Part shown: positions 3,550 to 53,395 of the stretch, in pieces
Layout: each line of letters opens with the position of its first letter
Position numbering within the stretch: the first letter of the stretch is position 1
Source: Vicugna vicugna
Lineage: Eukaryota
Direction: 5' to 3'
DNA length: 64,000 nucleotides
Assembly (NCBI GenBank): GCA_013265495.1
Contig: MU057959.1
Coordinates: forward strand, 137,202 to 201,201
Translations under genes and position numbers: made by a program
The notes under the pieces: model-generated
Database searches by the model: none
What the model was told of the DNA's origin: nothing
What the model saw: only the letters and a program-made list of their open reading frames with translations

Positions 3550-3756
3550 TGAAGTAGTGACTAAATCAATTTATTTAAACCCTCAGAAATCAAATACCAC
3601 CAAAGAGGACATGAACACTGAGTAGGAGAGAAGAAATGGGAAAGGAAGTATGATTACACAGAGATGATGTTATGCAGGAATCGGGAATGTTGTCTCCATA
3701 TTGTTGATCCTGATTCTGTTGAGAACATGATGCTCCTGGTTCTCACATGACATGTT
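3550..3756 (-). other. Gene A exon 7 (last 2 nt of the stop codon plus 3' UTR)
   Basis: CTAAC branch point, pyrimidine tract and CAG acceptor (3757-3758); AATAAA at 3570-3575, conserved in all three units. 3' end approximate. Confidence 0.75.
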
Positions 3757-6700
3757 CTGTAGGTGAATAAAACAGGACAGGGGTTAGTTCAGTTGACTGT
3801 ATGACAGGTAACAGGGCCCTGCCTCAGGGAGTAGGCTGTCCAAGGTCAGAGGAGCTGCTAGTGTATCCATTGGGCACATTCCATATGGAACTTAATATTC
3901 CCCATGACTCTGGTATGTGGGTATCCATTGAGAATTCCCCCAAGGATGTACATATGGTGGGACCTCTCCTGTGTAGCATTGCTTCTAGGAATTTTGTGGT
4001 TTCACGATGCGTGCTCGTGGAATGCTGTATCTAAAAATGATTGACAGGATCTGTAATTGAGTTATACTTTTCTAATTTTAGAAGTTTTGCCTTTGGTGGC
4101 TTCAGAATTATAATCATTTGGAAGCTACTATTACTGTCTGGCTTTTTCCTCCCTGTGTTCCTAAAAGAAAAAAGTAAAGCCACAATTTAGCCTTATGTCA
4201 TGTCCTTTTTTGGGGGATCTTCTTGTAGAAACCTTAAAGATCCCACTTTAACAAAATAACCCTCCAAAAGGGAAAATAAAGTAAATCCCTGTTTCAAACA
4301 ACGTGGTTGGAAGGTCTTCAGTGGGCCAGTCACAGTTACGTACAGTTGAACATAATTTTTGCAGTAATGGTGAGGTCTGTGCAAGCCCAGTTCTCCTGGA
4401 CAACCATCAGGTAGGGACTCACTGGGAAATTAATTAATTTTCATCAACTTCTGACGTTTCCTGCTTCTCTCTAAAGTCTGTCATCTGCATAAATCCTGCA
4501 TGTTGGTGCTTTCTCACCAAAACTGTTTAACATTGATTGGCCAATCATTAATTTAATAAGACTCAAGAGAAGCAAAACAATCCTTAATTTGAGAGAGAAG
4601 ATTGTCTAGTGACATAATTTAAATGATTGAACCAAAAGACATTGTCACCTAAAAAATTTGGCCCATATTAAGTCACAGTGTGTCCCTCCTGATTTCTTTG
4701 CTGGAACAGCAGTAACAACAGGTTATTTTTACTTACACTTGGTGGTGTCAATGACTTCAACGGTTGTATACTTAAGACAGTCCTCTGGGGAAAAATTAAA
4801 GGGACAAGAATAAAAGAATAGTGGATTATTATTATTTCCCAACACTCCCAAGGTTTCCTTTTTTATCTAATGGATTTTATAAAAGATTCTTTTTGGAAGA
4901 AAATTCAAACAAATCAATTTATTTCCTGACAGCCTATTTACATACCATGTAAATGATAAATTCAGGAAAAAGTGTAGTTTCATTACCAATACAGAAGACT
5001 TTCTCAAGATTTTCTTCTGGAATCCCCTCCTCTGTCAACACCTCCTTGATCTTCTCTAATTCTTCGCTTGTTATATCACATAGTTTGGCTGAAAAATCAA
5101 CCATGCATAAAGCAAAATTTTGACCATTAGAATCCTTGAAAATTTCTTAACACAGAATAAGAAATTGAATGTGTAAATCAGTTCTTCACTTGGTATGATT
5201 TTAACAGAGTCTCGAATAGACACAGATGTGTGTTTCTTCTTTTCAGAATGAAACCTTGTCTGACTCTACATTCTCTCTAGCATCAGCATCAAGGCTCCAA
5301 AGACTCATCAGGACCTCCGTGAATCTGCTTCCAGATTCATCACAAATATGGAAAATATTTCCTTCTTTATCAGCTTTGTAGAATCTATGCTTAACATTCA
5401 AGCCTCCTTCTGGACCAAATATTCTGGAAACATGTTCTCACCTCCTAGGGACACATTGACCTTGTCACATATAGTCATGGGAGATGATTTATTGTTTAAC
5501 TAAACCACATTTCTCTCCAGTGCGTTTTTGAAATAGATACCTGGTATCCTAGGGACTAGAGCAAAGCTCTTGGTGAACCTATGTGATCATCTGTGGTGAT
5601 GTCCGAATTATCAGAACATGACAAGGAGCAGTTGAACAGGATGAAGATTTATTTTAAAAGCTTCAATTCCAGGGCTTAGAACGCATTGGAAAAGTGTCAT
5701 AAAATGAAGAAATTGAAGTGACCGAATCATAGTGATGGCTTGAAATTAGTTGACATGTTCAGAACCTATTTCTAAAGTAACTCAAATTTTAAAATTCTTA
5801 AACTTCAATACATGGGACTTATTGTGAAATGTCAGGTGATCTGTTACTTTCCACTGCTCCCAGCTCCTGTTTTTACTTTTGTTTCTTTGTAGATCACATT
5901 CCTGGATCCTTAATGAACACAACGATGTAGGCCTTGTCAGTGGGTCATGAGTCATATGTGCGCATGCTGCCTTTTTGAATAAAAATGCTGACAGTGGAAG
6001 TGTTACCAGACACTGACCGTGAGGATAATAGGATGTGGTACATACCGAAGACTCCGACCAGTATGGTTTCTTTTACTTGTTTATCCACGGAGACATCAGA
6101 TGCTGCCGCGATATTGTTGGCTCGTTTAACAATTACTATTATGACATCTTCGGACACTTGAATAATTTGCAGTTCTATTGTACCATCATCTGTGAGTGAA
6201 AATAGACACTTACACAGATGCATCTTCATTGACTGCACATTAGCTTCATTTAGTTAATTAGTGGATAATTCATCAGTCCATCTTTGTTGGTCCTTGTGTG
6301 ACTCTGCCATTCTCGTGAATGGTATAGTCAACTATGACAGCAGGAAAGTGGGGAAGGCTTTCCTTGTTCACACTTTATTATACAGATAATCTTGTCACAC
6401 CTTACAGTTTTAGTAAGACGTTTTCTTTTACCTGTGTTCTATGGAATCCAATTCAGTTTATTTTTACAGCATCTGCATAATATCACACGGAAATTCAGGT
6501 ACTCCATATATTTGCATTATTCCAGCAGTGGAGTTGATTTCTCTCCGGGACCAAAAGCAACTGACCTTTGATTATTTTGCATTGTGAGTGCTGCCTGGTA
6601 GCAGGCACCTTCTGAACACTGTGGGTGAATGACTACATTCCCTCTGCTTCTCAGCCTTGCTGTGTTTTGTGACATGTGCAGATGGCACTACCTTATGTGT

Positions 6701-9700
6701 TGGTGTTAGGAAGGGTTTTAGAGGGTGGAACCAAGACAGCGGAGTAGAGACTCAACAGTTCAGCCTCTCCCAAAAACACACCAAGAACTGCATCTGCAAA
6801 CCCATCCAGTCACCCAGAACACCTGCTGAACTCTGGCAGAGTGTCTTTCATTTTGAAATACAGGAGGAGTCTCACAAAATCCGGTAAGAAAAAAGAGGAA
6901 AATGAAAGCATTCTGTGCAGGACTGGTCTTGCTGATAGGGTGTGGCATATGAAGAAAAGCACCCTGTAGATGTGACATCCCCTTTCCAACAGGGAGGTCA
7001 ATGGGGACAGAAGCAGAGCTTCTGAGACTCAGAGGAGAAAGTGACAGCAGACAGAACTTAGGGACTCTGACAGCAAAGATCCCTGCAACCCATGGTTCTA
7101 GACGGGAGCCTGCAGCTATAAGCTGGAGCTGGCTGCTTGCGATCTGTGAGGAGCCCAGGAAGAGGGCAGGGGCCCACTGCACAGAAGTAGCCTCAGGGAT
7201 ATGGAGGGTAGTGTGAGCTCTGGCTTGATGTGTGTATGGAACAGAACAGATTCAGATGCCCATAAAAAGCAGCACTATTTGTGTGTGTTGGTGGAAATGA
7301 CCTAATGCAGCCTCATCATAGCCACTTTGTCGGCTTGGCTCCTTTGTTGTGTTCTCATGAGAAGTGAATTGTGACTTGGTCACAGCCATCATTGTTGCTT
7401 GGAGGCAGGGCTGAAGCATGAATCTACACCCTGGGGCCCAGTAACTTCATGGGTAGGACTGAAATTTGTTTTTAGCCCCAGGCAGTTAAGGTGGATTTGT
7501 TCTCCCTGGACCACTTGTAGATTCATGCCTCTGTAAACAGTGAACAGAGTCCTGACTCATGGCAGCAGCTAATATGGGCATTTCCAACAGGCCTGCATAT
7601 AGTACTGTGCTGACACTGGCACAACACGGATTCAGGTGTGAGACTGCATATTTGTTGTGGTGGGTCCTAGCGCCTGACATTGGTGGGTCTGCAGTGGTGA
7701 TTCCTGGGACTCAGAACCTATAGGGCACAAAAGTAGGTGGCCAGCATTCCCACAGTTAAGGCAGGCACAAAGGCAGTATCAACAAAGAGTACACTGTAAG
7801 CCCAAATAACAAATGACAGACACCAACACAGAGGACATTTCCCAGTGGACCTTTCCTGCCTACTCTTCTTCCCAACTGCAGGGATTGAACACTGCCTTCT
7901 ACACGCCACAGCTCGGAAATAGGTTTAGAAGCCTCTATTCCAGCAACAGGGGAGCAGACCAGGCTGCTGTCAAGGCTGGGACAACTGCAAAACAAAAAAG
8001 ATGGCCTGGCTCAACAACAACCATCAGGGCTGTGTGTGATCAGCACACAACCAGCCACACCCTTAATCAAATCAATAAGAGCCAACAGTCATTAAAGATG
8101 GATGTGGAAATGTTCCATACTAAGAACAGCCCTCACAACAACACTATGAGATGCACAGTCTACATGGGAACACTTCTATGTTAAATAAAAACAAATGAAA
8201 AAAAAATAAAACAGCCCTTCAAGACCACAGCAGATAACTGATATTCCTAAATACATAGAGCCAGATAAATATAAGTAAAATGCAGAATTAGAAGGAGTAT
8301 TCCCAGTGAAAAGAAAAAGAGAAATTTTGTGAAAGAATGATCAATGAAATAGACCTTGATAGTCTACTAGAACATGACTTCAAAAAGGGAATGATCAAGG
8401 CAGTAAAGAAAATAAGAGACTATCAATTGGGATAGAGCATACTTTAAAAAGGAAATTAAGAGTATAAAAAGAGCCAATTAAAAACAGAAAACTCAGTGGC
8501 TGAGATAAGAGCCAAACTACAGGCCATCAGAAGCAGACTAGATACTGCAGAGAAATGAATAAGTGACTTAGAAGACAGGATAACAGACGTCACCCAATCA
8601 GAACAACAGACTAACAAGTAAAAGTCAATGAAAGCAGTGTTAGAGAGCTATGGGATAATACAAAGTGTGCCTATCTATGCCTAATGGGGTTTCTAGAAGG
8701 ATAAGAAAGAGAAAAAGGGATTGAAAAGATATTTGAAGAAATCATTACTGAAAACATTTCAAACCTAAAGAAGGAAACAGATATCCAAGTAAAGTACAGT
8801 ATGCACAGAGGGTCCCAAACAAGAAACCAAACAGACCTACACCAAGACATATTATAATTAAGATGGCCAAAGTTAAAGATAAAAGTTTCTAAAGTCAGCA
8901 AGAGAAAAAACAAAGTGTTCATTACAAGTGAACCCTCATGAGGCTTTCAGCTGATTTCTCTATACAAATACTGGTGGCCAGAAGGGAGTGGCAAGATATA
9001 TTCAAAGTCCTGAATGAGAAATGGCTGCAACCTAGGATACTCTATGCAGCAAGACTATACTTCAGAGTAGAAGGAGAGGTAAAGAATTTCAGAGACAAGC
9101 AAAAGCTAAAAGATTCAGCAATACTAAACCTCTACTAAAAGAAATAATGAAAGGTCTATTCTAAATGGGAAATAAAAAGGAAGCTATAGAAATCAGAAAA
9201 CCATAATTGGAAAATGATAACTCCAGTGAATATCAAGAGATTAAGCATTAAGAATAAAATAAATAAATAAAAATAAAGAATATCAAAATAATAAAAGCCT
9301 CGGAAAGGGAGGCAAGAAAACAGTTCCTTTCTCTTTCTCATCTTTATTTTTCTTTCTTTCCATTGTTATTAGGATGTGTGTGAGCCTACATGACTAACAG
9401 TCTAAATCAAACATATATCAAGGGGTTAGCATACATGAAAAACAGTATAACCACAAATCAAAGCAACAGAGTCACAAAAAAGAAACAGAAACCAAGCTAA
9501 TTCAAAAGAAAATTATCAAACTAGAACAAGAATAAGAAAAAGGAAAATAAAGGAACAAAGAAGAAATACCCAGTTATCTGGAAAACAAAGTTCAAAATGG
9601 CTATAAACACACTTCTGTCAGTAATTGACATAAATGTCAATGGACTAAATGCTACCAAAAGACATAGAGTGGTGGATTGGATAATAAAACAAAAGCCTAA

Positions 9701-12700
9701 CATATGCTGCCTATAAGAGACTCACTTTCAGTGAAGGACACATAGATCAAAAGTGAGAGGATGGGAAAATATATTTCATCCAAATGGAATTGACAAAGTG
9801 GGAGTAGCGATACTGATATCTGACAAAATGACTTTAAAACAGAGGTCATCAAGAGAGATAAAGAAGGACAATATATAATGATCAGAGCAATACAAGATGA
9901 AGATATTACAGTTGTTAACATATATGTGTCCAATATAGGAGCACCTAAATATTAAAAAAATATATATGACCAGAGATAAAGGGAGAAACTGATCGGAATA
10001 CAATAATAGTAGAATACTTTAACACTCCACTAACATCATTGGACAGATCTTCCAGACAGAAAATCAACAAGGAAGCAGAGATACTAAATGATGCAATAGA
10101 ACAGTTGGACTGGTTGATGTTTCTCGGACATTATATTCCCCTCAAAACAGAATACACATTCTTTTCAAGTGCTCATGGAATATTCCTTGGGATAGACCAA
10201 ATACTTGGGCACAAAAAAAGGTTCAGGGAATTGAAGAGGATAGAAAAAAGGATAGAAATTATTCCAAGCATCTTCTTTGAGCACAATGGCATGAAAGTGG
10301 AAATCAACCACAGAAAAATGAGAAATATATGGCAGCTTAGAGACTAAACAACATGCTACTAAAAAACCAGTGAGTCAACAGTGAAATCAAGAGAAAATTT
10401 AAAAATACCTTGAGACAAATTATGATGAAAACACAATCACACAAATTCTATGGGCTGCAGCAAAAGCAATCCTAAGAGGGAAGTTCATAGCAAAAGAGCC
10501 CTTTCTCATAAAAGAACAATCTCAAATAAACGATGTAACCTACCACCTAAAAGAAATAGAAAAAGAGAAGCAAACAAAACCTAAACTTAACAGAAGGAAA
10601 GGAATAATAAAGATCAATGAGGAAATAAATAAAATAGAGATTTAAAAAATAGAAAAAAATCAATCAAACCAAGAACTGGTTTTTTGAAAGACTGAACAAA
10701 ATTGACAAACCTCTGCCCACACTCACCAAGAAGAAAAGAGAGCACACATAAACAAACAATATAAAAAATGAAAATAGAGTTTACAACCAACACCACAGTA
10801 ATACAAAAATTGTAAGAGAATACTATAAACAACTATATGGCTATAAATTGGAGAACTTAGAAATGGACAAGTTTCTAGAAACAAACAGTCCACCAAAACT
10901 GAATGAAGAAAAAAAAATAGACCACTTGAACTGACCAATCACTAGAAATGAAACAGAATCAGCAATTAAAAAAAAAAAAACCCTGCAAACAACAATCCAG
11001 GACTTGATGGATTCATTGGGGCATTCTATCAAACATACAAAAAAGAACTCATACTAATCCTACTCAAAATCTTATAATAAGAGACTGAAGTGGAGGGAAT
11101 ACTCCCAAACTCATTCTATGCAGCCACCATCACCCTGGTCCTAAAGCCACACAAAACAGTACCAAAAAAGAAAATTATATGCCAGTCTCATTGATGAACA
11201 TAGATGCAAAAACTCTCAACAAAATACTAGGAATCAGAATCCAACAAGACATATAAAAGATTATACACCATGGTCAAGTTGGATTCTTCCCAGGGACACA
11301 AGGATGGTTCAGCATATCCAAATCAATCAGCATGATACACCACATCAACAAGAGAAAGACAAAAATCACATCACCATCTCAGTAGATGCAGAAAACTCAT
11401 TTGATAAAATTAAACACCGAGTTATGCTAAAACCTCTCACCTAAGTCGGTATAGAGGGAACATATATCAACATAATAAAAGCTATTTATGATTTATGACA
11501 CACCTACAGCCAGCATAATACTGAATGGTGAAAAGCGGAAAGGCTTTCTGTAAAATCTGAAACAAGACAAGGATGCCCACTCTCACCACTTGTTTTCAAT
11601 ATAGAGTTGAAAGTCCTAGCCATAGCAGTAAGACAAGAAAAAGAAATAAATGGATCTAAACTGGAAGAGAAGAGGTAAAATTGTCATTATATGTGGATGA
11701 CATGATGGTATATATATATATATATATATAGAAAACCCTAAAAGCTCCACACACAAATCATTAGAGCTAATAGAATTTTTGAGCACAGTAGGCTAAAATA
11801 TTAACATAGAGAAATCAGTGCATTTCTTTCCACTAAAAACAAAACATCAGAAAAATAAAGTAAAGAAATAATCCTTTTTAAAATTGCATCAAAAAAATAA
11901 GATAGTTCAGAATAAATCTGACCAAGGAAGTGCAAGAGTTATATGAGGAAAACTATAAAACATTGACTTAGGAAATTAAAGATGACTTAAAGAAATGGAA
12001 AGATATCCCGTGTTCAGTATAAACAAAAAGTTTATACTGTATAGCACAGGAAACCATATTCAATATCTTGTAGCAACTTGTGGTGAAAAAGAATATGAAA
12101 TGAATGTATTTATGTTCATATGTGGCTGAACTATTGTACTGTGTGCCAGAAATTGACACAACATTGTAAACTGTGTGAACTTCAGTAAAAGTGTATTTTT
12201 TAAAAAAAAGGATGAGTTTACATGCCAGGATATGGCCGAAGTGACCACCTCACAGTGAGCGCACACCCCCTGGAGAGGTGCACTTCACCTCTCTGGCTCT
12301 GTCCATTTATCTGCCACATTCTCTTCAGAAGAACAAGCGCTGATCTACTCTACACTACCTTTAAATCCGTTCTCCTTTCTAGCCCTCCAGACACCTCACT
12401 GGAATCGCTCATCAGGATCTGATTTAAAACTGCCCATCTGTGTCCCCGAAACCAGTATACCAAAAATACCATTAACAACTATGTCTAACACTGAAATATC
12501 ACGTTTGCCAGAGCAGAGACTAACTTACAGCTGACACAACTTCAGAGTTTCAGATGAATGTGTGCATCTTGCCCAATTCCACTCCAATTTGATGGGCCTT
12601 AGGTTCCACTGGGACAGTTTAAATCAGGTTTCATGCATCTCCTCAGGTTGTCAATCACCACCTCTGTGATCCCCATGGTTTTATAGAGGAGGGTTGCAGA

Positions 12701-15597
12701 CAATCTCACAATGGGCTGTACATGTTTTAAAGGTGAGGGAGGCAGTGAGAGTAAGGGCATCTCCTGGGCCCCCTTTGTGATCATGGCTCTGCTGGTGCTG
12801 TGCTGGCCGTGGCTGCACGTTATGTCCCCAGAACAACACTGGGGGGTCTTCAACCACCAGTTCCCAAGAGACACCATGTATTTTGCTTATTTGTGTCTAG
12901 TGAGCAACTCTTGGGCTATTTTTTCTGTTACAACAGTGTTGGGGCTCATATTCATATATTTAAATTTTCATCGATTGTGTATCCCTCAGATAATTTAAAT
13001 TTAGGAATGCTTTTTAGGACCATTAGAATGAACTTAGACATTTAAATCTTTGCTCTAAACTCCATTGCTTTGAACACAAACTGTTTATGAAGCAATGTGT
13101 TTGCTGCTTCACATCACTGTTTTGGGGGATGTAAGGTCCTTGGCTGTATAGGAATAAGATATTATATGATTGTTTTCAAAAGGTATATTCTTCAGAATGA
13201 ATTTGATTTGTTAACTCAAAATAGACTCTTGAGACGTTAGTTTCTAAGGTTGTTTGAAAGAATCCAGGAAGAGTTTCCTGCACCTGAGAATTTCCTGAAA
13301 TAATAATTCTATGTACATGTGATTAGCCTGCGATTGAATACGCTTAAGATTGGGAGGGACCATGCAAGTAATGTGACTTAAGTCTTTATCCATGACGAAA
13401 TAAAGTACCTGGAAAATTTAGGGCCTAGTGTCTGGTCATAGTTCTCATCTGTGGTAGAACTAGAATTTTAAAATATGGAATTCTGAAAGGAATTTGAGGT
13501 CAAGATTTCAACATAATATACTTTTACCCATAATATAGTCATACTTACCATCTATGGTATAAAGACCTTCTTCATTTATTTCCTTGGTAATTGTTTGTAT
13601 GCCTTTTTCTGTGAATCTTAAAAGCAAAACATATTCAAATGTATGTTTAAAAATAATGAAAGACTTTACAGTTAATTACGGTGTTTTAAATTTGACCCTC
13701 CCTAGTCCCTAGGTCACCTATCACCTTATTTCCTGTAAAAAAAAAAAAAAAAGGTGACATTCAAAAGAGAAGAAATAAGTCTTGTAAGATCAAGTAACTG
13801 TCAAGTGGCAAGGATGCCTGGTTACACATAAAATCTGAGCTGAAGTTCCACAGATAAACTACAAATACAAAAGACATCATATTTGAAGCCTAAGGAACAC
13901 AAATAATCTACAATTTGGGAAAGAAAAGAAAAGTAACAAGGCCTTTCTTCAAACTTGTCACTATCAAGACACATTTTAGTTGTTTCACAAAGCTGGCCTA
14001 GATTTCTTGGAAAATATAAGATAAAAGAACAAGAAAGAAAGACAAAAATGTGTTTAAGTATATCCACAACGCAAGCTCTTCTATAACAACACTGTAAGAG
14101 AATTAAACATTGAATAACACATATATGTATTCATGTCAAAGAGTGTGCCACATGAAAAGTCAGTTGATTACCGAGTATTAAAAGGTATGAAAATGATAAA
14201 CAGATAATGTGGTGTTCTTAAAGTGTCTGACAGCTGATAGCTATGTCTACTGGGATAGGATATATACGTGTATGTGGCTGTAATGTGATTATAAGTAGGC
14301 TATCAAATATATGTAATAAAAAGTCAATTATATATGTATGTCTTTAAAATAGTGTCTCCAAACTTAAAGCTCTTAGTTGACTTCTTAATGCTTTTATTCT
14401 TCAAAATATCTGTCTGTGTTTGCATGCTCCTAGTAAAAATCCCTCCGGGTTTGGAGTACATTTCATGAGCAGCACTGGGAGCTTCATGAATTTAGTGATG
14501 ATTGTAAATCACTGAGAGTCAGCCCTTCAGGGTCGAGACACTTTGTCATCCAGGTTCCCACATCCTCTGAGCCTCAGAGAGAAGCATATCCTACAAGTTG
14601 GACGTGGACTCAAGGCCCTAGAAGTATTGGGATGGAGGGCAGGACCCTCTATTTCCTGTTGTATTGGAGCTTCTCTCCTTTAATGAGTTGACTCCAGTGG
14701 AGCATCTGGGACTTTCCCTCTAAGCAAAGGCTCCAGGACGTTTTCTTGAGTGTGACCCTGGACTTGACTGAGAAATGCCAGAGACCCTTCTAATCCTCAA
14801 AACCCCAGGACTTGAGGTGTTCCACCTAACCCAGGTATTTCACAGCAAGTGTGTAATCCCGACCTTTTCTCAGAGTTTGGGATTTATGTGAATTTTCCCT
14901 GTGTGATATTTCTAGTTACCTGTCACAAAATGTGAAGGTGATTGTGCCAGCTTCTTCATCTATTTCAACCTTACAGTTGATCATCTGGCATCGAGTGATC
15001 TCAGTGGTCTTCTCTGTGTTACTGGCTGCGATATAAATGAGTTTCCATTCTGAAACCTGCAAGCAAAATTCCCCTTAGAAACTGTAGTTTATTTCTTTTC
15101 ATGGTGTCCACCACCATCCGTCACAAATTTCCCTTCACTCCTGTACATCAGCACAAATTACCTACCTTGTATGAACAAAGCAGGGTTCATAAATAATATG
15201 ATAATCTGAGATAACAGGAAAATATGGAGTTGAGATTTTTCAGAAATAGCTTACCCCCTGTGAAATTGAAGAGCTCCAGTGGGAAGGTTCTCTGGCTGAA
15301 CCCTGTTCTCTTGTACAAGGACAGTAAAGATGTGTGACAGCCCAGTAATAGGTGGTGTGGAGGTCACAGAGACAGTTCTGAGTTGTAGGTAGGTGGCCAG
15401 GTGACGTGCACGGATATGTGGATGCACATAACCACAGCCCAAAAAGGGACACACACACCCACACACGCTCTTACACACAAGCAAGACCTACTCCCACATT
15501 AGCCTGTCCCTGGTACCTGTGATTGAACCTGCTCAGTTTCAAGTTCTTGGGTGGCACAAAGAACACCAAGTATAAGACTCAAGAACAGAATCTTCAT
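3755..15597 (-). CDS. Lipocalin gene A: divergent Cys-rich odorant-binding-protein-like lipocalin, 193 aa, intact. CDS exons 15597-15517, 15056-14920, 13616-13549, 6189-6046, 5088-4987, 4784-4737, 3756-3755
   Basis: All introns GT-AG, phases 0,2,1,1,1,1, total 582 nt with no internal stop. Protein: [193 protein letters not shown]. Has a signal peptide and the OBP motifs W..IY.AASN.EK and GIPEEN. Confidence 0.85.
4737..4784 (-). CDS. Gene A exon 6 ([16 protein letters not shown])
   Basis: ttttccccag acceptor, gtaagt donor; 48 nt, same length as gene C exon 6. Confidence 0.8.
4987..5088 (-). CDS. Gene A exon 5 ([34 protein letters not shown])
   Basis: tttttcag acceptor, gtaatg donor; 102 nt; lipocalin helix plus GIPEEN. 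Confidence 0.9.
6046..6189 (-). CDS. Gene A exon 4 (144 nt)
   Basis: ctcacag acceptor, gtatgt donor; contained in ORF 5945..6238; 33 nt longer than the paralogous exons. Confidence 0.9.
6721..12208 (+). mobile_element. Near full-length degenerate LINE-1 in intron 3 of gene A (5' UTR, ORF1 ~8280-9160, ORF2 ~9597-12017 with 3' part deleted, 3' UTR and tail)
   Basis: ORF-track fragments [21 protein letters not shown] (ORF1) and [21 protein letters not shown] (endonuclease); degenerate TSD aggaagggtttta (6708-6720) / aggatgagttta (12209-12220); empty sites in the paralogs at ~29885 and ~49805. Confidence 0.92.
13549..13616 (-). CDS. Gene A exon 3 ([22 protein letters not shown])
   Basis: gcttttaag acceptor, gtaagt donor; 68 nt, phase 2 to 1. 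Confidence 0.88.
14920..15056 (-). CDS. Gene A exon 2 ([16 protein letters not shown]...FTFCD)
   Basis: ttgcag acceptor, AG|gtaact donor; 137 nt; conserved lipocalin Trp. Confidence 0.92.
15517..15597 (-). CDS. Gene A exon 1 coding part (signal peptide [15 protein letters not shown])
   Basis: ATG at 15597 in a good Kozak context (AGGATGA); CAG|gtacca donor, phase 0. Confidence 0.92.
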
Positions 15598-15679
15598 CCT
15601 GTCAGTTTTTCTAGTCCTCCTCCTGTAGAAGCTGAGTGTGCTGTGCACCAGTTGATGGAGAGAATCTTAATGTGTGCCC

Positions 15680-15722
15680 TTTTTATAGTAACCATCTGTG
15701 TCCTGACCCATAATGAACCAAT
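15680..15722 (-). promoter_or_regulatory. Gene A core promoter: TATA box (15680-15687) and inverted CCAAT (15718-15722)
   Basis: TATAAAAA about 85 nt upstream of the ATG, at the same position in all three genes. Confidence 0.75.
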
Positions 15723-25260: not shown

Positions 25261-25289
25261 TGTCTCTGTACATCCATCTCTTGAAAGTA

Positions 25290-27981: not shown

Positions 27982-28007
27982 TCAACACTCATCACAGTTA
28001 TCACAGT
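27982..28007 (-). pseudogene. Gene B exon 6 coding part (DCDNCDEC*)
   Basis: ccctctag acceptor; TGA at 27984-27982; gtaagt donor after 27954. Confidence 0.75.
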
Positions 28008-28210: not shown

Positions 28211-28324
28211 CAGGACAGATGATTATCGCAGCATTTTCTTCTGTAAGCCCATACGTCGGCAGTAGGTTATTTAACTTTTCTAAGACCGTCTGAAAGTTTT
28301 TCATTGGAATACAGTCTCCATTGC
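28211..28324 (-). pseudogene. Gene B exon 5 (114 nt)
   Basis: ttttcag acceptor, gtatga donor; open frame with GLTEEN motif; 12 nt longer than the paralogs. Confidence 0.8.
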
Positions 28325-29280: not shown

Positions 29281-29391
29281 CAAACAATTCGACCAGTGTG
29301 AATGTGTTGCCTTCCGTATCCACGCAGACAGCAGTTACTAGCAGGAATTCTTCGGATAGTTGAGTAATTTGCACTCCGTTTTTACAGTCAC
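29281..29391 (-). pseudogene. Gene B exon 4 (111 nt)
   Basis: ctcacag acceptor, gtatgt donor; overlaps ORF 29162..29374. Confidence 0.82.
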
Positions 29392-31437: not shown

Positions 31438-31508
31438 AATCTATGGCGTAAGTACCCTCTAGTGTCTTTATTTCTTTAATAGTTTGTTGAAAGGATTTTC
31501 CATTCACC
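31438..31508 (-). pseudogene. Gene B exon 3 (71 nt)
   Basis: cttttaag acceptor, gtaagt donor; VNGKSFQQTIKEIKTLEGTYAID. Confidence 0.82.
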
Positions 31509-32770: not shown

Positions 32771-32906
32771 TTGTCACAAATTGTGAAGGTGATTATGCCT
32801 TTTGTTTTATCAAATTCAATGTTACAGATAAAACACTGGGGCAGACAGGTCTTAGTGGTCTCGTCGCTGCTACTGACTGCTACAAGCATGCTTTCCATTC
32901 TGAAAT
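32771..32906 (-). pseudogene. Gene B exon 2 (frameshifted, donor lost)
   Basis: ISEWK, then the frame switches to MLVAVSSSDETTK...FTICD; donor is ATAAGT. Confidence 0.82.
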
Positions 32907-33360: not shown

Positions 33361-33483
33361 AGATGACGAAGCTGTTGTATCAGATGAGTCTGCCTCTGCT
33401 ACATCTGATTGAGCATCCTCACTTGGAAGTTCTTGGGCAGCACAAAGCACTCCAAGTACAAGAGTCAGGAACAGAATCTTCAT
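33361..33483 (-). pseudogene. Gene B exon 1 coding part (signal peptide plus acidic Ser/Thr extension)
   Basis: ATG at 33483; in-frame donor TCT|gtaaga; weaker donor at the gene-A-equivalent position, GAT|gtagca, at 33403. Confidence 0.75.
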
Positions 33484-33566: not shown

Positions 33567-33573
33567 TTTTATA
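33567..33573 (-). promoter_or_regulatory. Gene B TATA box
   Basis: TATAAAA at the conserved position; inverted CCAAT at ~33604. Confidence 0.7.
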
Positions 33574-39142: not shown

Positions 39143-39505
39143 CTTTTTTTTTTTTTTTACATTTTTTATTGAAGTATAGTCAGTTTACAATGTTGTATAA
39201 ATTTCTGGTGTACAGCACAGTGCTTCAGTCATACATGAATATACATAGATTCATTGTCACATTTTTTTTTCACTGTGAGCCACCTCTAGATCTTGTATAT
39301 ATTTCCCTGTGCTGTACAGTGTAATCTTGTTTATCTATTCTGCATATGCCTGTCAGTATCTACAAATTTTGAATTCCCAGTCTGTCCCTTGCCATCCCCT
39401 ACCCCCTTGGCAGCCACAAGTTTATATTCTATGTCTATGAGCTATGAGTCTGTTTCTGTTTTGTATTTATGTTCTTTTTTTTTTTTTTTTTTTTTTTCAC
39501 TTTAA

Positions 39506-39541
<36 letters not shown>

Positions 39542-42500: not shown

Positions 42501-43351
42501 CTCAAAGTATGTTTTGATTTCCTCTTTGATTTCTCCCATGATTCCCTGGTTGTATAGTAACATATTGTTCAGCCTCCACATGTTTGCAGTTTCTGCACTT
42601 TTTTTTTTTTTGTATTTGATTACTAGTCTAATAGCATTGTGGTCTGAAGATGTGCTTGGTATGATTTCATTTCTCTTAAATTTGCTGAGGCTAGCTTTGT
42701 GGGCCAGCATGTGGTTGATTTCTGAGAATGTTCCATGTGTATCTGAGAAGAATGTGTATTCTGTTGTTTTTGGGTGGAATGCTCTGTAGATATCAATTAT
42801 GTCCATCTGGTCTAATGTGTAATTTAGGGCCTGTATTTCCTTACTGATTTTCTGTCTGGATGATCTGTCCATTGGTGTAAGTGGGGTGTTAAGGTCCCCC
42901 ATTATTATTGTGTTATTGTCAGTTTCCCCTTTTATGTCTATTAACAATTGCCTTATATATTGAGGTGCTCCTGTGTTGAGTGTATATATATTTACAACTG
43001 TTCTATCCTCTTCTTGGATTGACCCCTTAAGCAGTATGTAGTGCCCTTCTTTGTCTCTTGTAACAGTCTTTATTTTAAAATCTATTTTCTCTGATAGAAG
43101 TATTGCTACTTCAGCTTTCTTTTGCTTTCTGTTTGCATAGAATATCTTTTTCCATCCCCCTCACTTTTAACCTGCACATGTCTCTAGCTCTGAAGTGGTT
43201 CTCTTGCAGACAGCATTTATATGGGTCTTGTTTTTATGTCCATTCAGCCAGTCTGTGTCTTTTGTTTGGAGCACTTAATCCATTTACATTTAAGAAGATA
43301 GGTGTATTCATACTGCCATTTTGTTAATTGTTTTGGACTTGTTTTTATAGG

Positions 43352-43382
<31 letters not shown>

Positions 43383-45385: not shown

Positions 45386-46754
45386 TCAATCTCTCCAGAC
45401 CTTCAACTTCTTGATACAAAATTCTGTGAGGACATATTGCTTTTCCTTGATGAAGACAACAGAGATTTTTGGTTTCATCTTGAGTCAATTCTTGTAATTG
45501 CCCTTTCAGGAAATATGTCCATTTGATCAAAATATTACTTTGGTCAGCATAACTTTGCTTAATATTTTTCTGTTCTCTGTATTTCTGGGGGATTTGTAGT
45601 GAGAACCTCCTTTCCTTTATCATAGTGCTGTCACAAATACATACCTTATACACACGTATGTGTATGAACGTGCAATATTTCACAGTTTTTGCACTTGTTT
45701 GTGCCACATCCTAGCTTCCAACATTCCCTGAGGCGCTCATGTCAGATTCACCCCCTCCCTCTCTACTCAGTCACCTGTCTATATATCCACTCCCCAATCC
45801 AGAATTTCCACTTACTCTTTAGACCATCATCAGAGTCCACACATAGACCTCTTTTACATGAGAGGAGAATTCATATACGGCCATCACATTTCTATTACAT
45901 CCTTCCAAAGCCATAGTAACCTTCCTTACTAGTGCCTTTGACTTTGGCCAACAGGAGCCCATCAGGAGACCATTTCTGTGTAGCAACTCAAAGACGTATT
46001 CTATAAAATATCACTGAGGTTTAGTTTTAACTCCCCAGGCCTTGGGGAGTTCTCTTTCCTCTCTGTAAGATGTAATGTACAGGCTTTCATAGGTGGTGGA
46101 CACCTTGAGGACCTTGTTGAGCTTCTCCGTGTCTTCTGCCCATTCCTTGGAGATGCCTATATCTCTTGCTCTTTGGAAACAAAGAGGGAGGAATACCAAT
46201 TTCAGATCCTGTGTTCTGTGTGTGCAGTTACAACTTCCCACCTGAGCTCTCGGTCACCTTCTTCCTCCATCACCACGCTGTCTTCATTGTGCTGTGGAGT
46301 GATCACATCTTAGATGCTGCCCGTCTTTGATGACTCGTGACCTATTAATAGCAACTACCAGTCTTTCTGCTCAATTTCAGACATAATGTGCTGTGGGAAA
46401 AGGCATGTTTCGTTGGTTATGGGGCAGGGCATCTCCCACTTTCCCTGCATGTATTTGAATGAGTCCCACACACATTTCTTTCCCCACAATGAATAAGGTG
46501 CCCTGTGAGGACTCTTTGTTGACCACAGTGCCCCATCCCCCTGCCATAAAGTGCCTATAGTCCTCTCCCCTTTCCCATGATTATGTAGCCCTTTTTCTCC
46601 CTCTCACCAGGACAGCATTAGGACGTCTCTGTTTAACCCTTATCAGATTGACTCTGGTGGGACATCTGTCCTATTAAAGACACATTTTCCTGGATGTTTA
46701 ATGTTGCTCTTTGTGAGTTTTAAATTAAGTGAGTTTCTGCACAGATGCACATGC

Positions 46755-46968
46755 ACAGAGTGCTTATTAAATCAATTTATTTGAACCCTCAGAAATCAAA
46801 TACCACCGAAAAGGACATGAATGCTGAGCAGGAGAGACAAAGTGGAAAGGAAGTATGATTATGGAGAGAGAGATGGATGATGTTATGTGGGAACCAGGAA
46901 TGCTGTCTCCATATTGTTGATCCTGATTCCAACGAGAAGATGACATGCCTGGTTCTCTGTGACATGTC
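46755..46968 (-). other. Gene C exon 7 (3' UTR)
   Basis: CTAAC branch point, cacctacag acceptor (46969-46970); AATAAA at 46776-46781. Confidence 0.75.
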
Positions 46969-47906
46969 CTGTAGGTGAATAAAACAGGACAGAGGTTAGT
47001 TGAGTTAACTGTATGACAGGTGACAGGGCTCAGCCTCAGGGAGTAGGTTGTCCAAGGACACAGTAGCTGCTAGTAAATCCAGTGGGCAGATTCCACGTGG
47101 AACTTACTACTCCTCATGTGTCTGATGTGTGGGTATCTATTGGGAATTCCCCCAAGGATGTACATGTGGTAGGGCCTGTCCTGTGTAGGATTGATTCTAG
47201 GATTTTTTGTGATTTCAGGATGTATGCTTATGGAGTGGTTCATCTAATAATGATTGACAGGATCTGTGATTGAGTTACACTTTTATTGTCTAATTTCAGG
47301 TTTCATCTTTAGTTGACTAAAGAATTATATTCACCTGTAAGCAGATGGGGTTTTTATCTTTGCATTTAAAGATCTCAACTTAAAAAAAATCATGTTCTGA
47401 AGGGAAATATACAACAAGGTGTGTTTCAGATAGCACGGTTTTCAGTGAGGCTGTCTCAGTTTTGTACAATTAAACGTTGCTTTTGCCGTAGTGGTAAGTT
47501 CTCTGTAAGTTCAGTTCTCCTGGACTTGGGCTGTATACGCACAACCATCAGGTCACGACTGACTGGGAAATTAATTAGTTTTCTACAACTTCTGGCAATT
47601 CCTGGTTCTCTCTAAGGTCTGATATCTGCATAAATCCTGCATGGTGGTGCTTTCTCACCAGAACAGCTCAGCTTTAATTGGCCACTCGTCTGTAATGTAG
47701 TAAGGCTCAAGAGAAGAAAAATAACCCTAATGTAAAAGAAAAATTCTTTAGTGACATAATTTAAATGATTTAGGCAAAAGATATTGTCACCTACAACATT
47801 TGGCCCATGTGAAATCTCAGCATTTCCTTACTGATTTATTTTCTAGAGCAGCAGTAACAACAGGTCATTTTTACTTACAGTTCGTGGTGTTGAAGTCCTC
47901 TTTCAT

Positions 47907-47926
47907 TCACAAGTCAGGACAGTCGT
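47907..47926 (-). CDS. OBP: Gene C exon 6 coding part (DDCPDL*)
   Basis: ttcctgccag acceptor; TGA at 47909-47907; donor after 47879. Confidence 0.85.
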
Positions 47927-50900
47927 CTGGCAGGAAATCAAAGAGGAAAGAATAAAAAAACTACCGAGTATTACCATTTCCCTATATGTCCAAGGTTTCA
48001 TTTTTTAAGTCATGGATTTTATAAAAGATTCACCATGGGAAAGAAATCTTAAATGAATCAGTTCGTTTCCTGACAGCCTATTTACATCCCCCATGAATGA
48101 TGTATTCAGGAAAAAGTGTAGTTTCATTACCAAGACTGATGATTTTCAGAATATTTTCTTCTGGAATCTCCTTCCCGATTGTCACCGACTTGAACGTCTC
48201 AAAGAGTGCGTCATCAATGTCATCTCCTTTGGCTGAAAAATAACCATGCGTAAAGCAGAATTTCACCCGTTAGAACCTCTGAAATATTCTGAATACAGAA
48301 TAAGAAACTGAATGTGCAGATCAGTTCTTCACTTGGTACATTTTTATCAGAGTTTCAAACTGACACAGACGTCTGCTGCCTGTGTTCAGGACACCCAGTC
48401 TGAGTCTGTAACTACTTTCTCTCCAGCATCAGCACCAAACTCCAAAGACTCATCAGGACCTGCAAGTATCTGGCGCTCAATTCATCACAGATGTGAAAAG
48501 TATTTCCTTCTTTATCAGCTTCCTAGAATCTATACCTGACATTCAAACCTTGTTCGGGTCCAAATATTCCAGAATTATGTTCTCGCCTCTCAGAAACACA
48601 TTGATCCTGTGACACATAGTCATGGGAGATGATTTATTCTTTAATGAAACCACAGTTCTAATCAGTACCTTCTTCAGATAGACACGTGTTGTCCCAGGGA
48701 CCAGAGCACACCTCGCAGTGAGCCCGTGTGGTCACCTGTGGTGATGTCCGCATTCGTCAGAACATGGCATGAGAGAAATTGAACAGGATAAAGATTTGTT
48801 TTAAGAGCTTCAGTTCCAGGGCTTACAAAGCATTGGGAAAGTGTCATAAAATGGAGAAACTGAGGTCAACTGGATCACAGCCATGGCTTGAAATTAATTG
48901 ACATGTTCAGAAACTGCTCTAAAAGAACTCAATTTTTAAAATTCTTAAATTTTAACACCTGGAACTTATTTTTAAATGTCATATGATCTGTTACTTCCCA
49001 CTGCTCCCAGCTCCTCTTTTTACGTTTGTTTCTTTGTAGATCACATCCCAGGACCCTTAATGAACATAATGACGTAGGTCTTGTCAGTGGGTAACGAGTT
49101 ATGTGTGCACATGCTGACTTTCTGAATACAAATACAAATGGGGATAGTAGGATGAGTTACATACCAAACACTACGGTCACTATGGTCTTTGTGCCTTCTT
49201 CATCCATGTTGATGTTAGATGCTATCAGGACATTTTCGGATGCTTGAATTATTTTGAATTCATTTGTACCAGCATCTGTGGGTGAGCAAGAACAGGCATG
49301 TATACTGATGCGTCTTCATTGATTGGGCATTAGCTTCATTTAGCTAATCAGCGGGTTAGCCACTAGCACACCTGTGTTGGTCCGTGTGTCACTGCATCCA
49401 TGCAGTGATGCTACGGCTCGTTAAGATGGCAGGGAAAGTGGGGTGGAGCTTCCTTATCACCTCCTTCTTATACAGGTAACATGGTCACATCTTGCAGGCT
49501 TACTATGGTGTTTTCTACCACATGTGTTCTAAGGAAGGCAACATGTTCTTTTTTTTTATCAACATGTGCATGTTATCACAAGCAAGTTCAAGAACTCTGC
49601 ATATTTCTTTACCCCAACAATGCAGTTGATTTCTCTCTGGGACCAAAAGTAGCTCGCCTCTCATCACTTGGTGTTATGTGTGCTGCCCTGTACCAGGCAC
49701 CTTCTGACACTGTATGAATGACTGCATTTCCTGTGTCTCGCAGTCTCACTGTGTGACGTCACAGATGTGCAGAGGCCACTGCTGTGTGGGTCGGTGTTAG
49801 GACAGGATTGCTCACCAGGATATAGAGGAAGTGACCACCTCCCAGTGACCACACACCCCCTGTGGGGTGCACCTCACCTCTCTGGCTCTGTCCATCCAGC
49901 TGCCACATTTCTGTTCAGAACGAGCGCTGATCTACTCTGTTACCTCTCAATCCATTCTCCCTTCTAGCCCTCCTGACACCTCATTGGAGTCACTCATCAG
50001 GATCTGATTTAAAACTGCCCAGCTGTTTTCCGAGAACACAAAAATACCATTGCCCACTCTCTGGAACCCTGAAACATCATGCTTCTGCCACAGCAAAGGC
50101 TAAGTTACAGCCAACACAGCTTGAGAGTTTCAGACAAGTGTGTGCATCTTACCCAAGGCCACCCCTAGTCCATGGGCCTTGGGTTCCACTGGGACAGTTT
50201 AAATCAGATTTCATGCATGTCCTCAGGTTCTCAGTCCCCACCTCTGTGATCCCTATGGTTTTACACAAGAGGGTTGCAGACAATTTCACAATGGGCTGTA
50301 CGTGTTTTGAAGGTGAGGGAGGCAGTGAGAGTAAGCGCATCTCCTGGGCCCCCTGTTGTGATCAAGGCGCTGCTGGTGCTGTGCTGGCCGTCGCTGCATG
50401 TTACGTCCCCAGAACAACGCTGGGAGGCTGCAACCGCTCACTCCCAAAGACTGTAGAACAGGCCAGCTGTTCCTTCCTCTCCCTTCTTAAATTGCCTTGT
50501 CAATATCCAGGTACAAAGGATTCCCCAAAATTTGGAAATTTAAATGAGGAGTTATAAAAGCATGTATGATGCAGTGAAAAGGAAATAATAATATAGGAAT
50601 ACAAAATAAAAACTTCATTTAGGTAATCTCTTGATATATAAGGTTACTGATGAATATGTAGGGAAATCCTTCCAGCATACATTTTACTAATTTGTGTTCC
50701 TTGCACGACCCCTGTGCTGTTTCTTGTGTTACACCAGGGTTGGGACCTTATATCGATACATTTAAATTTTCATCAATTATATACCCGACGCCATTTAAAT
50801 TTAGAAATGCTTTTAGGGCCGTTAGAAACAACATAGACATTGAAATCTCAGCCACCAGCCCCGTTGCTGTGAACACAAATGGTGTTTATGAAACAACAAG

Positions 50901-53395
50901 CTTTGTCTTTGAAATCACTATGGTTTTTTTGGAGTTAAGGTCCTTGGCTATATAGGAATGGATTATGATGTTCTAATGTTGTTTTCAAAAAGTGTACTTT
51001 GCAGAATGAAATGTATGTGTAAACTCAAGACACACCCTTGAGACATTAGTACCTAAGATTGTTTGGAAGAACCTAGAAGTAGTTTCTTGCACCTGAGAAC
51101 CTCCTGAAATAACAGTTCTACGTCCATGTGGTTAGTCTGTCATTCACGACATGCAAGATTGGGAGGGGCCATCCCAGCCATGTGAGGTAAGCCTTTGTCA
51201 TGACAAAATACAGTGCCCCCCAAATTTAGTGACCAGTGCCTGGTTACACCTCTCATCTCTGGTGGAATTAGGATTTTAAAATGTGGAATTCTTGGAGGAA
51301 TTTTAGGCCAAGATTCAACCCTAACATAATTTTACCCATAATAGGATCATACTTACAACGTATGATGTAAACACCATCTTCTCTCTTTATCCCATGGACA
51401 GTTTTTTTTACGCATTCTCCATCCGACCTTAAAAACAAAACATATTCAAGTTGTTTGATTAAAAATAATGAACAATTTGATATTTAACTAGGATTTTCTT
51501 TGTTTGACCCTCCCAAGACCCTATGTCACCTGTCACCTTAGTGCCTGTAAACAAGGTGAGAAGAGAAGAAATAAGTCCTCTAGCATCAAATAACTGTCAA
51601 GTGGCAAGGATGCCTGATTACACATTAAACCTGAGCCAAAATTCCAAAGATAAATTGGAAATACAAAAATGATCACGTTCAAACCATAATAAACATGAAT
51701 AAGTCTAGAATTTGGGGAAAGAAAAGGAAAGTAACAAGGTGTTTATTGAAACCGATAAGTATCAAGACACACATTCGTTGTTTCACAACCCTGGCCCAAG
51801 TTTCTTACAGAGCATACTACCAAAGAGCAAGAAAAAAGACAAAAATGTGTTTAAGTGTATCCAAAACGCAAGATCTGTATCAAAACAGTGTAAGAGAATT
51901 ACCCATTGAAAGACATAGGCATGTCTTTGTGTCAAAAAGTATAGCCCCATAAATGATCAGTTAAATATAGGTCTTAGAATGTCTGACAGCTGACAGGTGC
52001 TGAGGTTGGATGTATATGTGTGTGTGGGTGTAATTTAATTATAAGTAGACTATCAAATATATACAACTTACAGTCAATTGTATATATTTGTATATGTCTT
52101 AACCACTGTCTCCAAACCTAAAGCTCTTCATTGTCTTCTTAATTCTTCTATCTTTCAAAATATCTATCTGTGCGAGCACGCTCCTAATACAACCCCTGCC
52201 ACGTGGAGAACATTGCCTGAGCAGCACTGGGAGCTGTGGTGACCTTCATACATTCAGTGATGATTGTAAACCACTGAGAGGCAGCCATTCAGGGTCGAGG
52301 CGAGTTTGTCACCCACATGCGCACATCCTCTGCAGCCCAGTGGGAACCACATCCTCTGAATTCTGCATGAAGGAGCCCAGCCCCCAGGACTGTGGGGATG
52401 GAGACCAGGAGCCTCTTGTTCCTGCCCCATTGGCCCTCTTTCCTTTGAGGAGTTGACTCCAGTGGAGCATCTGTGGCTTTCCCTCTAAGCAAAGGCTCCC
52501 GGGCGCGCTCTAGAGGCTGGTCCTGGACCTGACTCAGGAATTCTGTAGATCCCTCTAAACCACAGGACCCCGGGAGTCACAGTCTTCCACCTGATGCATG
52601 CATTTCACCGCAGACGTGGAAGCCACACCCTCTCAGGTTCAGAGATTAATGTCAGTTTTTCTTCCATGTTATTTTACTTACTTGACAAAAAAGGTTAAGG
52701 TGATTATGCCGTTTTCATCATCTAATTCAATATTACGCATAAAAGTGTGGAATGGGCCGTTCTCGCTGATCTTCTCTGGGTTACTGGCTGCGAGATAAAT
52801 CGTTCTCCAGTCTGAAATCTGAAAGCAAAAATCCCCTTAGAGACGAGGGCATCTCTTTTCACTGTGTGCACCACCCTCCGTCGCGACTTTCCCTTCACTT
52901 CTGCACACCTGCGCAGATTACCCACCTGGCATGGACAAAGCAGGGCTCAAAAATAGTGGGAAAACCCAAGAAAAAGGGAGAACATGGAGTTGAGATATTT
53001 CAGGTGTTTGACTTACACCCTGAGAAATGGAAGAGCCCCAGAGGGACAGGTCTCTGGCTGACCCCCCTTCTCTTGTACAAGAACAGCAAAGATGCAGGAG
53101 AGCCCGGTGTCAGACAGTGGGGAGAGTATATGGAGATAGTATAGCAGTGCAGGTGCCAGTTAGTGGAGCAGTTCTGAGCTGGAGGTAGATGTCCAGCTGA
53201 AGTGCACAGAAATATGGATACACATAAGCAGAGCCCAAAGGGACACACACACACACACACACACACACTTAAAATGGGACAGAATGTCCTCACAGATAGC
53301 TCTGGCCGTGGGAATCTTGAGTGATCCCTCCCAAGTGGAGGTCCATGGGCCGCACAAAGGACACCAAATACGAGAGTCAGGAACAGAATCTGCAT
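47907..53395 (-). CDS. OBP: Lipocalin gene C: odorant-binding protein (OBP)-like, 180 aa, intact. CDS exons 53395-53294, 52818-52682, 51427-51357, 49275-49165, 48232-48131, 47926-47907
   Basis: All GT-AG, 543 nt. Protein: MQILFLTLVFGVLCAAHGPPLGRDHSRFPRPELSISDWRTIYLAASNPEKISENGPFHTFMRNIELDDENGIITLTFFVKSDGECVKKTVHGIKREDGVYIIRYAGTNEFKIIQASENVLIASNINMDEEGTKTIVTVVFAKGDDIDDALFETFKSVTIGKEIPEENILKIISLDDCPDL*. Motifs WRTIY..SNPEKI.ENGPF, YAGTNEF, IPEENI and DDCP resemble bovine and porcine OBP. Confidence 0.92.
48131..48232 (-). CDS. OBP: Gene C exon 5
   Basis: 102 nt, AG/GT; within ORF 48078..48266. Confidence 0.92.
49165..49275 (-). CDS. OBP: Gene C exon 4
   Basis: 111 nt, AG/GT; YAGTNEFKII...TVVF. 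Confidence 0.92.
51357..51427 (-). CDS. OBP: Gene C exon 3
   Basis: 71 nt, AG/GT; SDGECVKKTV with the conserved Cys. Confidence 0.92.
52682..52818 (-). CDS. OBP: Gene C exon 2
   Basis: 137 nt, ctttcag acceptor, gtaagt donor. Confidence 0.93.
53243..53268. repeat. (CA)n microsatellite in intron 1 (paralogs at ~33335-33354 and ~15449-15479)
   Basis: Direct reading. Confidence 0.9.
53294..53395 (-). CDS. OBP: Gene C exon 1 coding part
   Basis: ATG at 53395, signal peptide; the gene-A-equivalent donor lacks GT, and the next in-frame donor is TCT|gtgagg. Confidence 0.8.

Follow-up and report, generated by a model that had tools for sequence, protein, structure and literature searches.

A 64,000-nucleotide stretch of the vicuña genome (Vicugna vicugna, assembly GCA_013265495.1, contig MU057959.1, positions 137,202 to 201,201 of the forward strand; hereafter the window) was found by self-comparison to hold three tandem units with about 75% likeness to one another. 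Each is a minus-strand lipocalin gene of seven exons, and we call them A, B and C. Gene C is a conventional odorant-binding protein (OBP) gene, and A and B belong to a lineage-specific clade of cysteine (Cys)-rich secreted OBP-type lipocalins, a placement that a first-pass annotation of the window had proposed and that gene trees now support. The explanation we favour, at roughly even probability, is that the intact genes of this clade would encode secreted, disulfide-rewired and pocket-rebuilt lipocalins, part of a camelid bloom under diversifying selection and acting as diversified scent or gland proteins.

Cysteine sites in the window and across the array

The exons of A, B and C were fixed by coordinate and then translated, and Cys sites were numbered by porcine OBP (1DZJ, 1A3Y) through the gapless alignment of the alpaca counterpart of C to 1DZJ (E=1e-40). 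Mature gene C has Cys at positions 63 and 155 (51414-51412 in exon 3 and 47921-47919 in exon 6). Gene A has six, at 35, 40, 56, 122, 151 and 155 (14990, 14975 and 14927, being codons 23, 28 and 44 of exon 2; 5080 and 4993 in exon 5; 4779 in exon 6). Gene B has 12, at 33, 37, 40, 56, 82, 84, 104, 123 and 151 plus three in exon 6, a count that holds only if B is read across two breaks (a loss of 1 nucleotide (nt) in exon 2 and an exon-2 donor reading AT). These are the counts (2, 6 and, after repair, 12) and the codons that the first-pass annotation had given, and its site-by-site claims were likewise recovered: in exon 2, C has CGT (Arg) at codon 28 and TTT (Phe) at codon 44, where A and B both have TGT; C has AGT (Ser) at the late exon-5 site, and the other two again TGT; the early exon-5 Cys is near-aligned, with one codon between its places in A and B (122 versus 123); the exon-3 Cys has given way to Gly in A and Ser in B; and the NGPF and YAG motifs are missing from both.

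With exon 2 of A as query, the 2.03-Gb assembly gave 10 places, and exon mapping over contig positions 1-291100 (3,029 bases unread) gave 10 copies: A, B, C, P23k, P33k, P50k, P68k, P87k, P107k and P124k, the P-names following position on the contig. One more, X1089, lies on another contig (C1089), and the total of 11 is a lower bound because the contig starts inside the array. No neighbouring gene could be recognised beside the copies, the open reading frames there being uninformative. Nine of the 11 copies are Cys-rich, C and X1089 having the ordinary pattern, and three of the nine are intact, namely A (6 Cys), P107k (7 Cys) and P50k (11 Cys). When the ancestral frame is followed, all eight Cys-rich copies with exon 3 have lost Cys63, which C and X1089 keep, while Cys122 or 123, Cys151 and Cys155 are present in all seven with exons 5-6. 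Among the eight Cys-rich copies with exon 2, Cys35 is found in seven, Cys33 in five, and Cys40 and Cys59 in four each; Cys56 occurs in A, B and P33k, plus P68k in a gappy alignment. The constant new sites are 122/123, 151 and 35. The idea that the codon-44 Cys (position 56) stands in for the lost Cys63 did not survive as a general rule, this site being Phe in intact P107k and Tyr in intact P50k.

Local motifs differ between copies as well. A C33-P-C35 motif is found in P50k, P107k, P124k and P23k, and C-terminal C-x2-C repeats in B, P50k and P87k; A has neither. Exon 2 of A, P107k and P50k is without CxxxC spacing, and B has one at 33-37; A and P107k have CxxxC spacing at the C-terminus (151-155), a different site from the rodent N-terminal CxxxC.

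To gauge departure from chance, a composition-only codon model was run over exons 2-5 to equal protein divergence from C or X1089. It predicts 1.4-2.2 new Cys, against 5 observed in A, 6 in P107k, 7-8 in P50k and 9 in B (P from 0.03 to 5e-5, values that are not independent since the four share ancestry), and the expectation is lower still with position-specific frequencies.

Relationships and lineage restriction

The intron tree (~3,200 columns) separates C and X1089 from the rest with support 100 and joins B to P50k with support 94, and is otherwise nearly star-like; intron difference among array copies is 20-26%. The original view of A and B as a two-gene subfamily therefore had to be dropped: they are two of nine Cys-rich copies, forcing them together as sister genes is rejected on intron sequence (approximately unbiased (AU) test, p=2e-7), and B pairs with P50k.

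A homologue search with an alignment headed by the Cys-rich dromedary protein returned 34 proteins, made up of 6 camelid sequences, 24 from outside the camelid clade (21 of them named as rhinoceros, pig, ruminants, dolphins or bat) and 4 short pieces that were excluded. The protein tree, of 34 rows after removal of a short dolphin model, gives the Cys-rich clade support 100 and nests it in an all-camelid clade with 99, and a mixture model with 17 Cys columns removed gives 99 for each; B and P50k form long branches in this tree, and its root is a single long-branched bat sequence. The expectation that no outside homologue would share the pattern was borne out, none of the 24 having Cys at 33, 35, 56, 122/123 or 151, in a search that relies on shared words and that fast-changing relatives in other mammals could escape. 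Cys40 is seen in one of the 24, a gappy pig model, and core Cys number 0-3 in the 23 outside homologues that were aligned. The usual description of a mammalian OBP-type lipocalin has zero, one or two fixed disulfides.

Other searches were less informative. Exon 2 of A used alone in the homologue search gave no match, and a profile search of the whole sequence library gave 8 matches (7 camelid or camelid-like and 1 OBP exon) and missed pig OBP, so that it is too weak to show absence elsewhere; atlas searches returned lipocalin clusters only, or no match above 0.9. No account of this camelid clade was found in the literature sampled, which consisted of listings and abstract starts and covered few subscription journals.

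The Cys-rich copies, C and X1089 are nested among artiodactyl OBPs and have common exon phases and the seven-exon layout, so A, B and their relatives are OBP-branch lipocalins by descent and predicted fold. They lack the two features of pig-type OBP that were tested, the Cys63-Cys155 disulfide and the Phe35/Tyr82 pair, and for this reason we do not file them as classical OBPs.

Structure of the gene models

Gene A is intact, encodes 193 residues and has GT-AG ends at 6/6 introns. A TATA box (15681..15687) stands ~85 nt ahead of its start codon, and one is found at the equivalent position in 10/10 array copies with exon 1. Exon 1 (15517..15597) encodes a hydrophobic N-terminus, a putative signal peptide by likeness to annotated camelid OBPs; exon 2 (14920..15056) holds the Cys at 35, 40 and 56; and exon 3 (13549..13616), with its Gly in place of Cys63, is one codon shorter than in the paralogs. 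Exon 4 (6046..6189) has Asp in place of Tyr82 and a 33-nt in-frame insertion of 11 residues, also present in Camelus ferus, which has one residue more; the insertion may alter the register of strand G or form an extra loop. Gene conversion as the origin of this insertion was set aside as weak (28/39 to X1089 versus 21-26/39). Exon 5 (4987..5088) carries Cys122 and Cys151, both kept in the C. ferus model P0011, and exon 6 (4737..4784) carries Cys155 and reads through the usual stop into an added C-terminal tail, the stop codon being split across exons 6/7 and completed by the start of exon 7 (3755..3756), so that the gene ends at 3755. In both A and P107k the exon-6 stop is lost and a stop is formed across the exon 6/7 joint, leaving tails of 10-13 residues past Cys155.

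Gene B begins with exon 1 at 33403..33483. Exon 2 (32771..32906) has Cys33, 37, 40 and 56 in the ancestral frame, together with the 1-nt loss and a dead donor (AT at 32770-32769); unrepaired, the frame meets a stop at codon 36 (32882-32880). Exon 3 (31438..31508) has Ser in place of Cys63, and the codon for Cys82 spans its joint with exon 4 (29281..29391), which holds Cys84 and Cys104. Exon 5 (28211..28324; Cys123 and Cys151) is 12 nt longer than in A and C, like that of P50k and P87k, and the coding part of exon 6 (27982..28007) gives three Cys spaced C-x2-C-x2-C, then a stop. B is a pseudogene in this assembly. That the breaks stem from assembly error is less likely, two separate lesions arguing against it; the counterpart of B exon 2 in C. 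ferus P0011 is in frame.

Gene C (47907..53395; exons 53395-53294, 52818-52682, 51427-51357, 49275-49165, 48232-48131 and 47926-47907) is intact, encodes 180 residues, and differs at 3 residues from alpaca XP_031527111.1 and at 13/164 from a Bactrian camel protein. Its usual exon-1 donor is lost and a donor 21 nt downstream is used (53294-53315), adding 7 residues; the extension is also present in the annotated alpaca and camel proteins.

Beyond the window, P50k (contig 50877-45310, minus strand) is intact, with its 11 mature Cys and a C-x2-C-x2-C tail, and is sister to B; no homologue search returned a full-length P50k protein, the one match being an exon-4 piece (P0045). X1089 (C1089, ~1207000-1212640, plus strand) is a conventional OBP with an open frame, a GC donor after exon 1 and an extra Cys at position 20, and a lone exon-1 copy lies near C1089:1230050.

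Conservation in Camelus

The prediction that the new Cys are kept in sister species was upheld on the Camelus side. Dromedary KAB1253562.1, the P107k orthologue, keeps 7/7; C. ferus EPY74145.1 keeps 7/7 in B-like exons 2-4, which are in frame, and 3/3 in A exons 4-6; B-like exon 5 of a second C. ferus model retains 2/2; and sequencing run X2 shows four base differences from A exon 2, none in its three Cys codons. Together 22/22 Cys are retained against 351/406 other residues (86.5%; P ~0.04), a count that leaves out a second camel B-like copy, the three exon-6 Cys of B (no camel match) and a P50k-like piece. Run X2 is ~4-5% diverged and has the camel's extra exon-4 codon, and its source is probably a Camelus. 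The camel B-like exons are only 77% identical to B at non-Cys residues and may represent a close paralog. For the exons available, A and P107k also have open frames in Camelus.

Two observations concern the camel models themselves. Models P0006 and P0011 show wild camel with two adjacent B-like genes between C and A, where the vicuña genome has one, and public C. ferus models fuse exons from several array genes into one protein, EPY74145.1 being a chimera of B-like and A exons. KAB1253562.1 (Camelus dromedarius) and EPY74145.1 (Camelus ferus) are automatic gene models of Cys-rich members that bear only the public names 'Odorant-binding protein' and 'hypothetical protein', and no full-length model of A, B or P50k was present among the homologue-search results.

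Rate of change

Exons of the Cys-rich genes differ more than their introns (A-B 0.35 vs 0.22; A-C 0.34 vs 0.22), and those of the conventional pair do not (C-X1089 0.19 vs 0.20). The ratio of nonsynonymous to synonymous rates (dN/dS), estimated with our own codon-likelihood code on six Cys-rich copies (three of them pseudogenes) with indel edges masked, was 1.57 (p=0.001), 1.41 (p=0.013) and 1.46 (p=0.005) under three frequency models, and site model M2a was better than M1a (p=9e-5). Introns read as codons gave 0.86-1.07, and 18 equal-size intron chunks 0.60-1.41, none of which reaches 1.57. These values suggest diversifying selection on the Cys-rich copies, as in the rodent Mup, Abp and Obp blooms. 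Under a three-ratio model the stem between (C, X1089) and the Cys-rich copies has a dN/dS near 8, with a gain over two ratios of only 2.2 log units; we take this as a lead towards a burst of change as the Cys pattern arose.

Fold and pocket

The Pfam Lipocalin profile (PF00061, cut-off 23) scores the dromedary P107k orthologue at 34.7 bits and alpaca C at 71 bits, and none of five single exons of A and B matched it alone. In sequence searches bovine and pig OBP were the best matches of the Cys-rich dromedary protein (pig OBP E=6e-15), and they were also the best structural matches of a first AlphaFold2 model (16 sequences; predicted local distance difference test (pLDDT) 56.7; template-modelling (TM) score 0.44-0.54). 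A further AlphaFold2 model of the dromedary protein (pLDDT 71.6, predicted TM score 0.70) has eight strands, a helix and a short ninth strand, so the barrel-plus-helix fold is predicted to be kept. In it the lid loop ends with Cys33/35, strand B contains Cys40, the E-F loop Cys84 and the linker between strand H and the helix Cys122, and Cys151/155 lie past the ninth strand. Of the G-x-W motif, six genes (A, B, C, P107k, P50k and X1089) retain Trp16, and in each of them, even the conventional ones, another residue stands in place of the Gly.

Residues at the pocket entrance are replaced: positions 35 and 82 are Cys/Asp in A and P107k, Cys/Glu in P50k and Pro/Cys in B; Tyr82 is kept in the broken copies P68k and P124k. 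Part of an earlier report states that mutating Phe35 or Tyr82 of pig OBP abolishes 1-aminoanthracene binding (PMC6172251), and with both residues replaced in 3/3 intact genes the ligand preference has presumably changed. It could be argued that these proteins are still broad odorant carriers or scavengers and that the new Cys just substitute for the lost stabilising bond: fold, Trp16, exon phases and promoter are all kept, Cys-free ruminant OBPs are among the homologues, and bovine OBP mutants bind ligand with or without the disulfide, going by the sections of PMC4841250 available. We think this improbable, because 5-11 gained Cys exceed the need of one replacement bond, Asn86 and Phe88 are changed in the intact Cys-rich genes in addition to Phe35 and Tyr82, and the Cys-rich proteins are only 27-43% identical to C and X1089 although the introns differ by 20-25%. 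The intact Cys-rich members are instead likely, as far as function can be predicted from their sequences, to be specialised scent or gland-secretion proteins and not general odorant carriers.

A proposed model of disulfide rewiring

The favoured explanation starts from what the array shows: tandem duplication produced at least 11 copies, of which two keep the ordinary pattern, and the Cys-rich copies have lost Cys63 and hold Cys122/123, 151, 155 and mostly 35. From co-occurrence and general lipocalin geometry only, we suggest that 122/123 pairs with 151, clamping both ends of the helix, that 155 pairs with a gene-specific Cys (38, 40, 56 or 59) on the outer face of strands B-D, and that the lid-loop Cys33/35/37 may pair with Cys82/84 where present. 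The odd Cys counts of P107k (7) and P50k (11) mean that each must have at least one Cys without an intrachain partner, free or interchain; A (6) need not. The last step of the model would be the diversifying selection discussed above, with dN/dS exceeding 1 in our codon model.

The unpaired Cys raise the question of dimers. The loss of the 63-155 bond and the replacement of the hinge residue Gly121 might allow a helix swap, Cys122 then stapling the pair, and position 121, which adjoins Cys122, is Leu, Val, Val and Lys in A, P107k, P124k and P68k. Portions of two papers describe bovine OBP, which has no disulfide, as domain-swapped, and as a monomer once a Gly is added after residue 121 (PMC4841250, PMC3127118). 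The loss of Cys63 in 8/8 copies and the odd Cys counts would also fit covalent or domain-swapped dimers. The bovine hinge, however, is one residue shorter (a gap against C), whereas that of A and P107k is full length, B and P50k have four extra residues just past the hinge, and the Cys counts of A and B are even; we regard dimers as unlikely.

Functional thiols are a further candidate, in which C-P-C at the pocket mouth and the C-x2-C-x2-C tails would bind metal or trap reactive aldehydes or thiols. The four copies with C33-P-C35, the three with C-x2-C tails, the odd Cys counts and the acidity of the Cys-rich proteins (isoelectric point 4.05-4.63) are consistent with it, and pig OBP binds the reactive aldehyde 4-hydroxynonenal (HNE) according to an excerpt of PMC8476925. 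We nonetheless judge it very doubtful. A carries neither motif, none of the proteins has a His, and a fixed chemical site should be conserved, yet the sites vary among paralogs. Secreted proteins, moreover, traverse an oxidising compartment in which close Cys pairs usually end as disulfides.

The favoured explanation has also a more far-reaching relative, which we consider conceivable though rather unlikely: a camelid OBP gene may have turned into a disulfide-variable secreted family for signalling or defence, with paralog-specific networks of 6, 7, 11 and 12 Cys, a cross-linked pocket entrance, some reactive thiols or covalent dimers, whole-gene positive selection of the toxin or pheromone kind, and volatile carriage abandoned.

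Expression and points of doubt

Nineteen listed runs matched positions 4700-6250, of which six were examined (X1, X2, X5, X8, X11 and X12), the six raw-read RNA runs X14-X19 being outside this set. In X1 and X2 introns and exons are covered evenly, with ~4-5% difference, and we take both to be RNA libraries containing the DNA of a related camelid. Two apparent joints in the runs were discarded, one having TG..TG ends and the other being a diverged paralog. As for the poll gland, the main text of PMC10295320, so far as it was available, held no passage relevant to a link; a camel poll-gland protein table (PMC11276878 supplement) rests on annotated proteins, while the Cys-rich array genes are poorly annotated.

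Several results weigh against the explanation that we favour. The RNA-labelled runs X1, X2 and X5 yielded no spliced reads for gene A, their cover being unspliced and free of exon joints, and the poll-gland table has no OBP entry. Of the nine Cys-rich copies, six (B, P124k, P68k, P87k, P33k and P23k) are broken or partial. Cys are patchy among paralogs at 40, 56, 59, 84 and 104, the second camel B-like copy left out of the Camelus count is without Cys123, and Cys retention against a neutral-DNA expectation is marginal (P ~0.11). The dN/dS estimate draws half its copies from pseudogenes; the intact three alone give 1.58 (p=0.03) or 1.35 (p=0.15), the Cys-rich rate does not significantly exceed that of C and X1089 (1.78 vs 1.13, p=0.18), and only 4/28 pairwise dN-versus-dS tests fall at p<0.05, uncorrected. 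Finally, the model of the P107k orthologue is poor in the lid (residues 29-33) and over most of 152-164, regions that hold several of the Cys.

Some of these results would suit a different history, in which the Cys-rich copies are a decaying and mostly silent part of the array and the Cys are by-products of relaxed selection from one odd ancestor. The broken copies, the missing spliced reads in the runs examined and the marginal retention against neutral DNA point that way, as do the near absence of a strongly constrained site class in the site models and the fact that Cys40 can come from a CpG (CGT in C and X1089). We give decay little credence all the same. If unselected, each terminal branch should have gathered ~9-11 disabling changes (a rough estimate built from an indel count plus simple rates for stops and splice sites), yet none is seen in A, P107k or P50k, which keep their frames and every splice site. 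In Camelus, too, A and P107k have open frames over the exons available, all length changes in the intact genes are in frame, dN/dS lies above 1 and not at 1, and the Cys gains go beyond the neutral expectation.

Comparison with known systems

Porcine OBP has the 63-155 disulfide (numbering from the title of a reference in PMC3127118) and the Phe35/Tyr82 entrance, in contrast to the camelid Cys-rich genes, which are without Cys63 and Phe35 and, in the intact members, without Tyr82. Bovine OBP (1OBP; deswapped mutant 2HLV), the best sequence and fold match of the Cys-rich dromedary protein, is also without the canonical disulfide (PMC4841250, in the portion available); it lost both Cys and one hinge residue and swaps domains, whereas in the camelid genes Cys155 survives and 5-11 Cys have been added. 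The rodent X-linked Obp cluster with aphrodisin offers another likeness, having tandem genes plus pseudogenes, an added disulfide, and roles in secretions and chemical signalling, but its added bond is one fixed CxxxC (Cys38-Cys42; both points from a partial text of PMC8476925), while in camelids the canonical Cys is gone and the pattern changes from one paralog to the next. Mouse Mup, Abp and Esp are lineage-specific tandem expansions with many pseudogenes, as extracts of PMC6381713, PMC3477143 and PMC2839280 describe. They belong to a separate branch or family, and the camelid copies are old, as their intron differences show, and not near-identical. Within Mups the arrangement of Cys is generally stable.

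With 6-12 Cys, the canonical partner gone and dN/dS in excess of 1, the clade constitutes a natural experiment in disulfide rewiring on a stable fold, and its members are candidates for a part in chemical signalling among camelids and in allergy to camelid dander. Because these genes are poorly annotated in public camelid sets, proteomic searches on such sets could miss their products; correct models make the question testable.

Other features of the window

Intron 3 of gene A contains a decayed insertion on the plus strand (6764..12215), antisense to the gene and with no frame above 125 codons, which on its sequence features we take to be LINE-1-like. Positions 53621-55794 and 55791-57964 form a head-to-tail 2174-base duplicate with 9 differences, ~230 bases upstream of the start codon of gene C, either duplicated recently or produced by the assembler joining two haplotypes.

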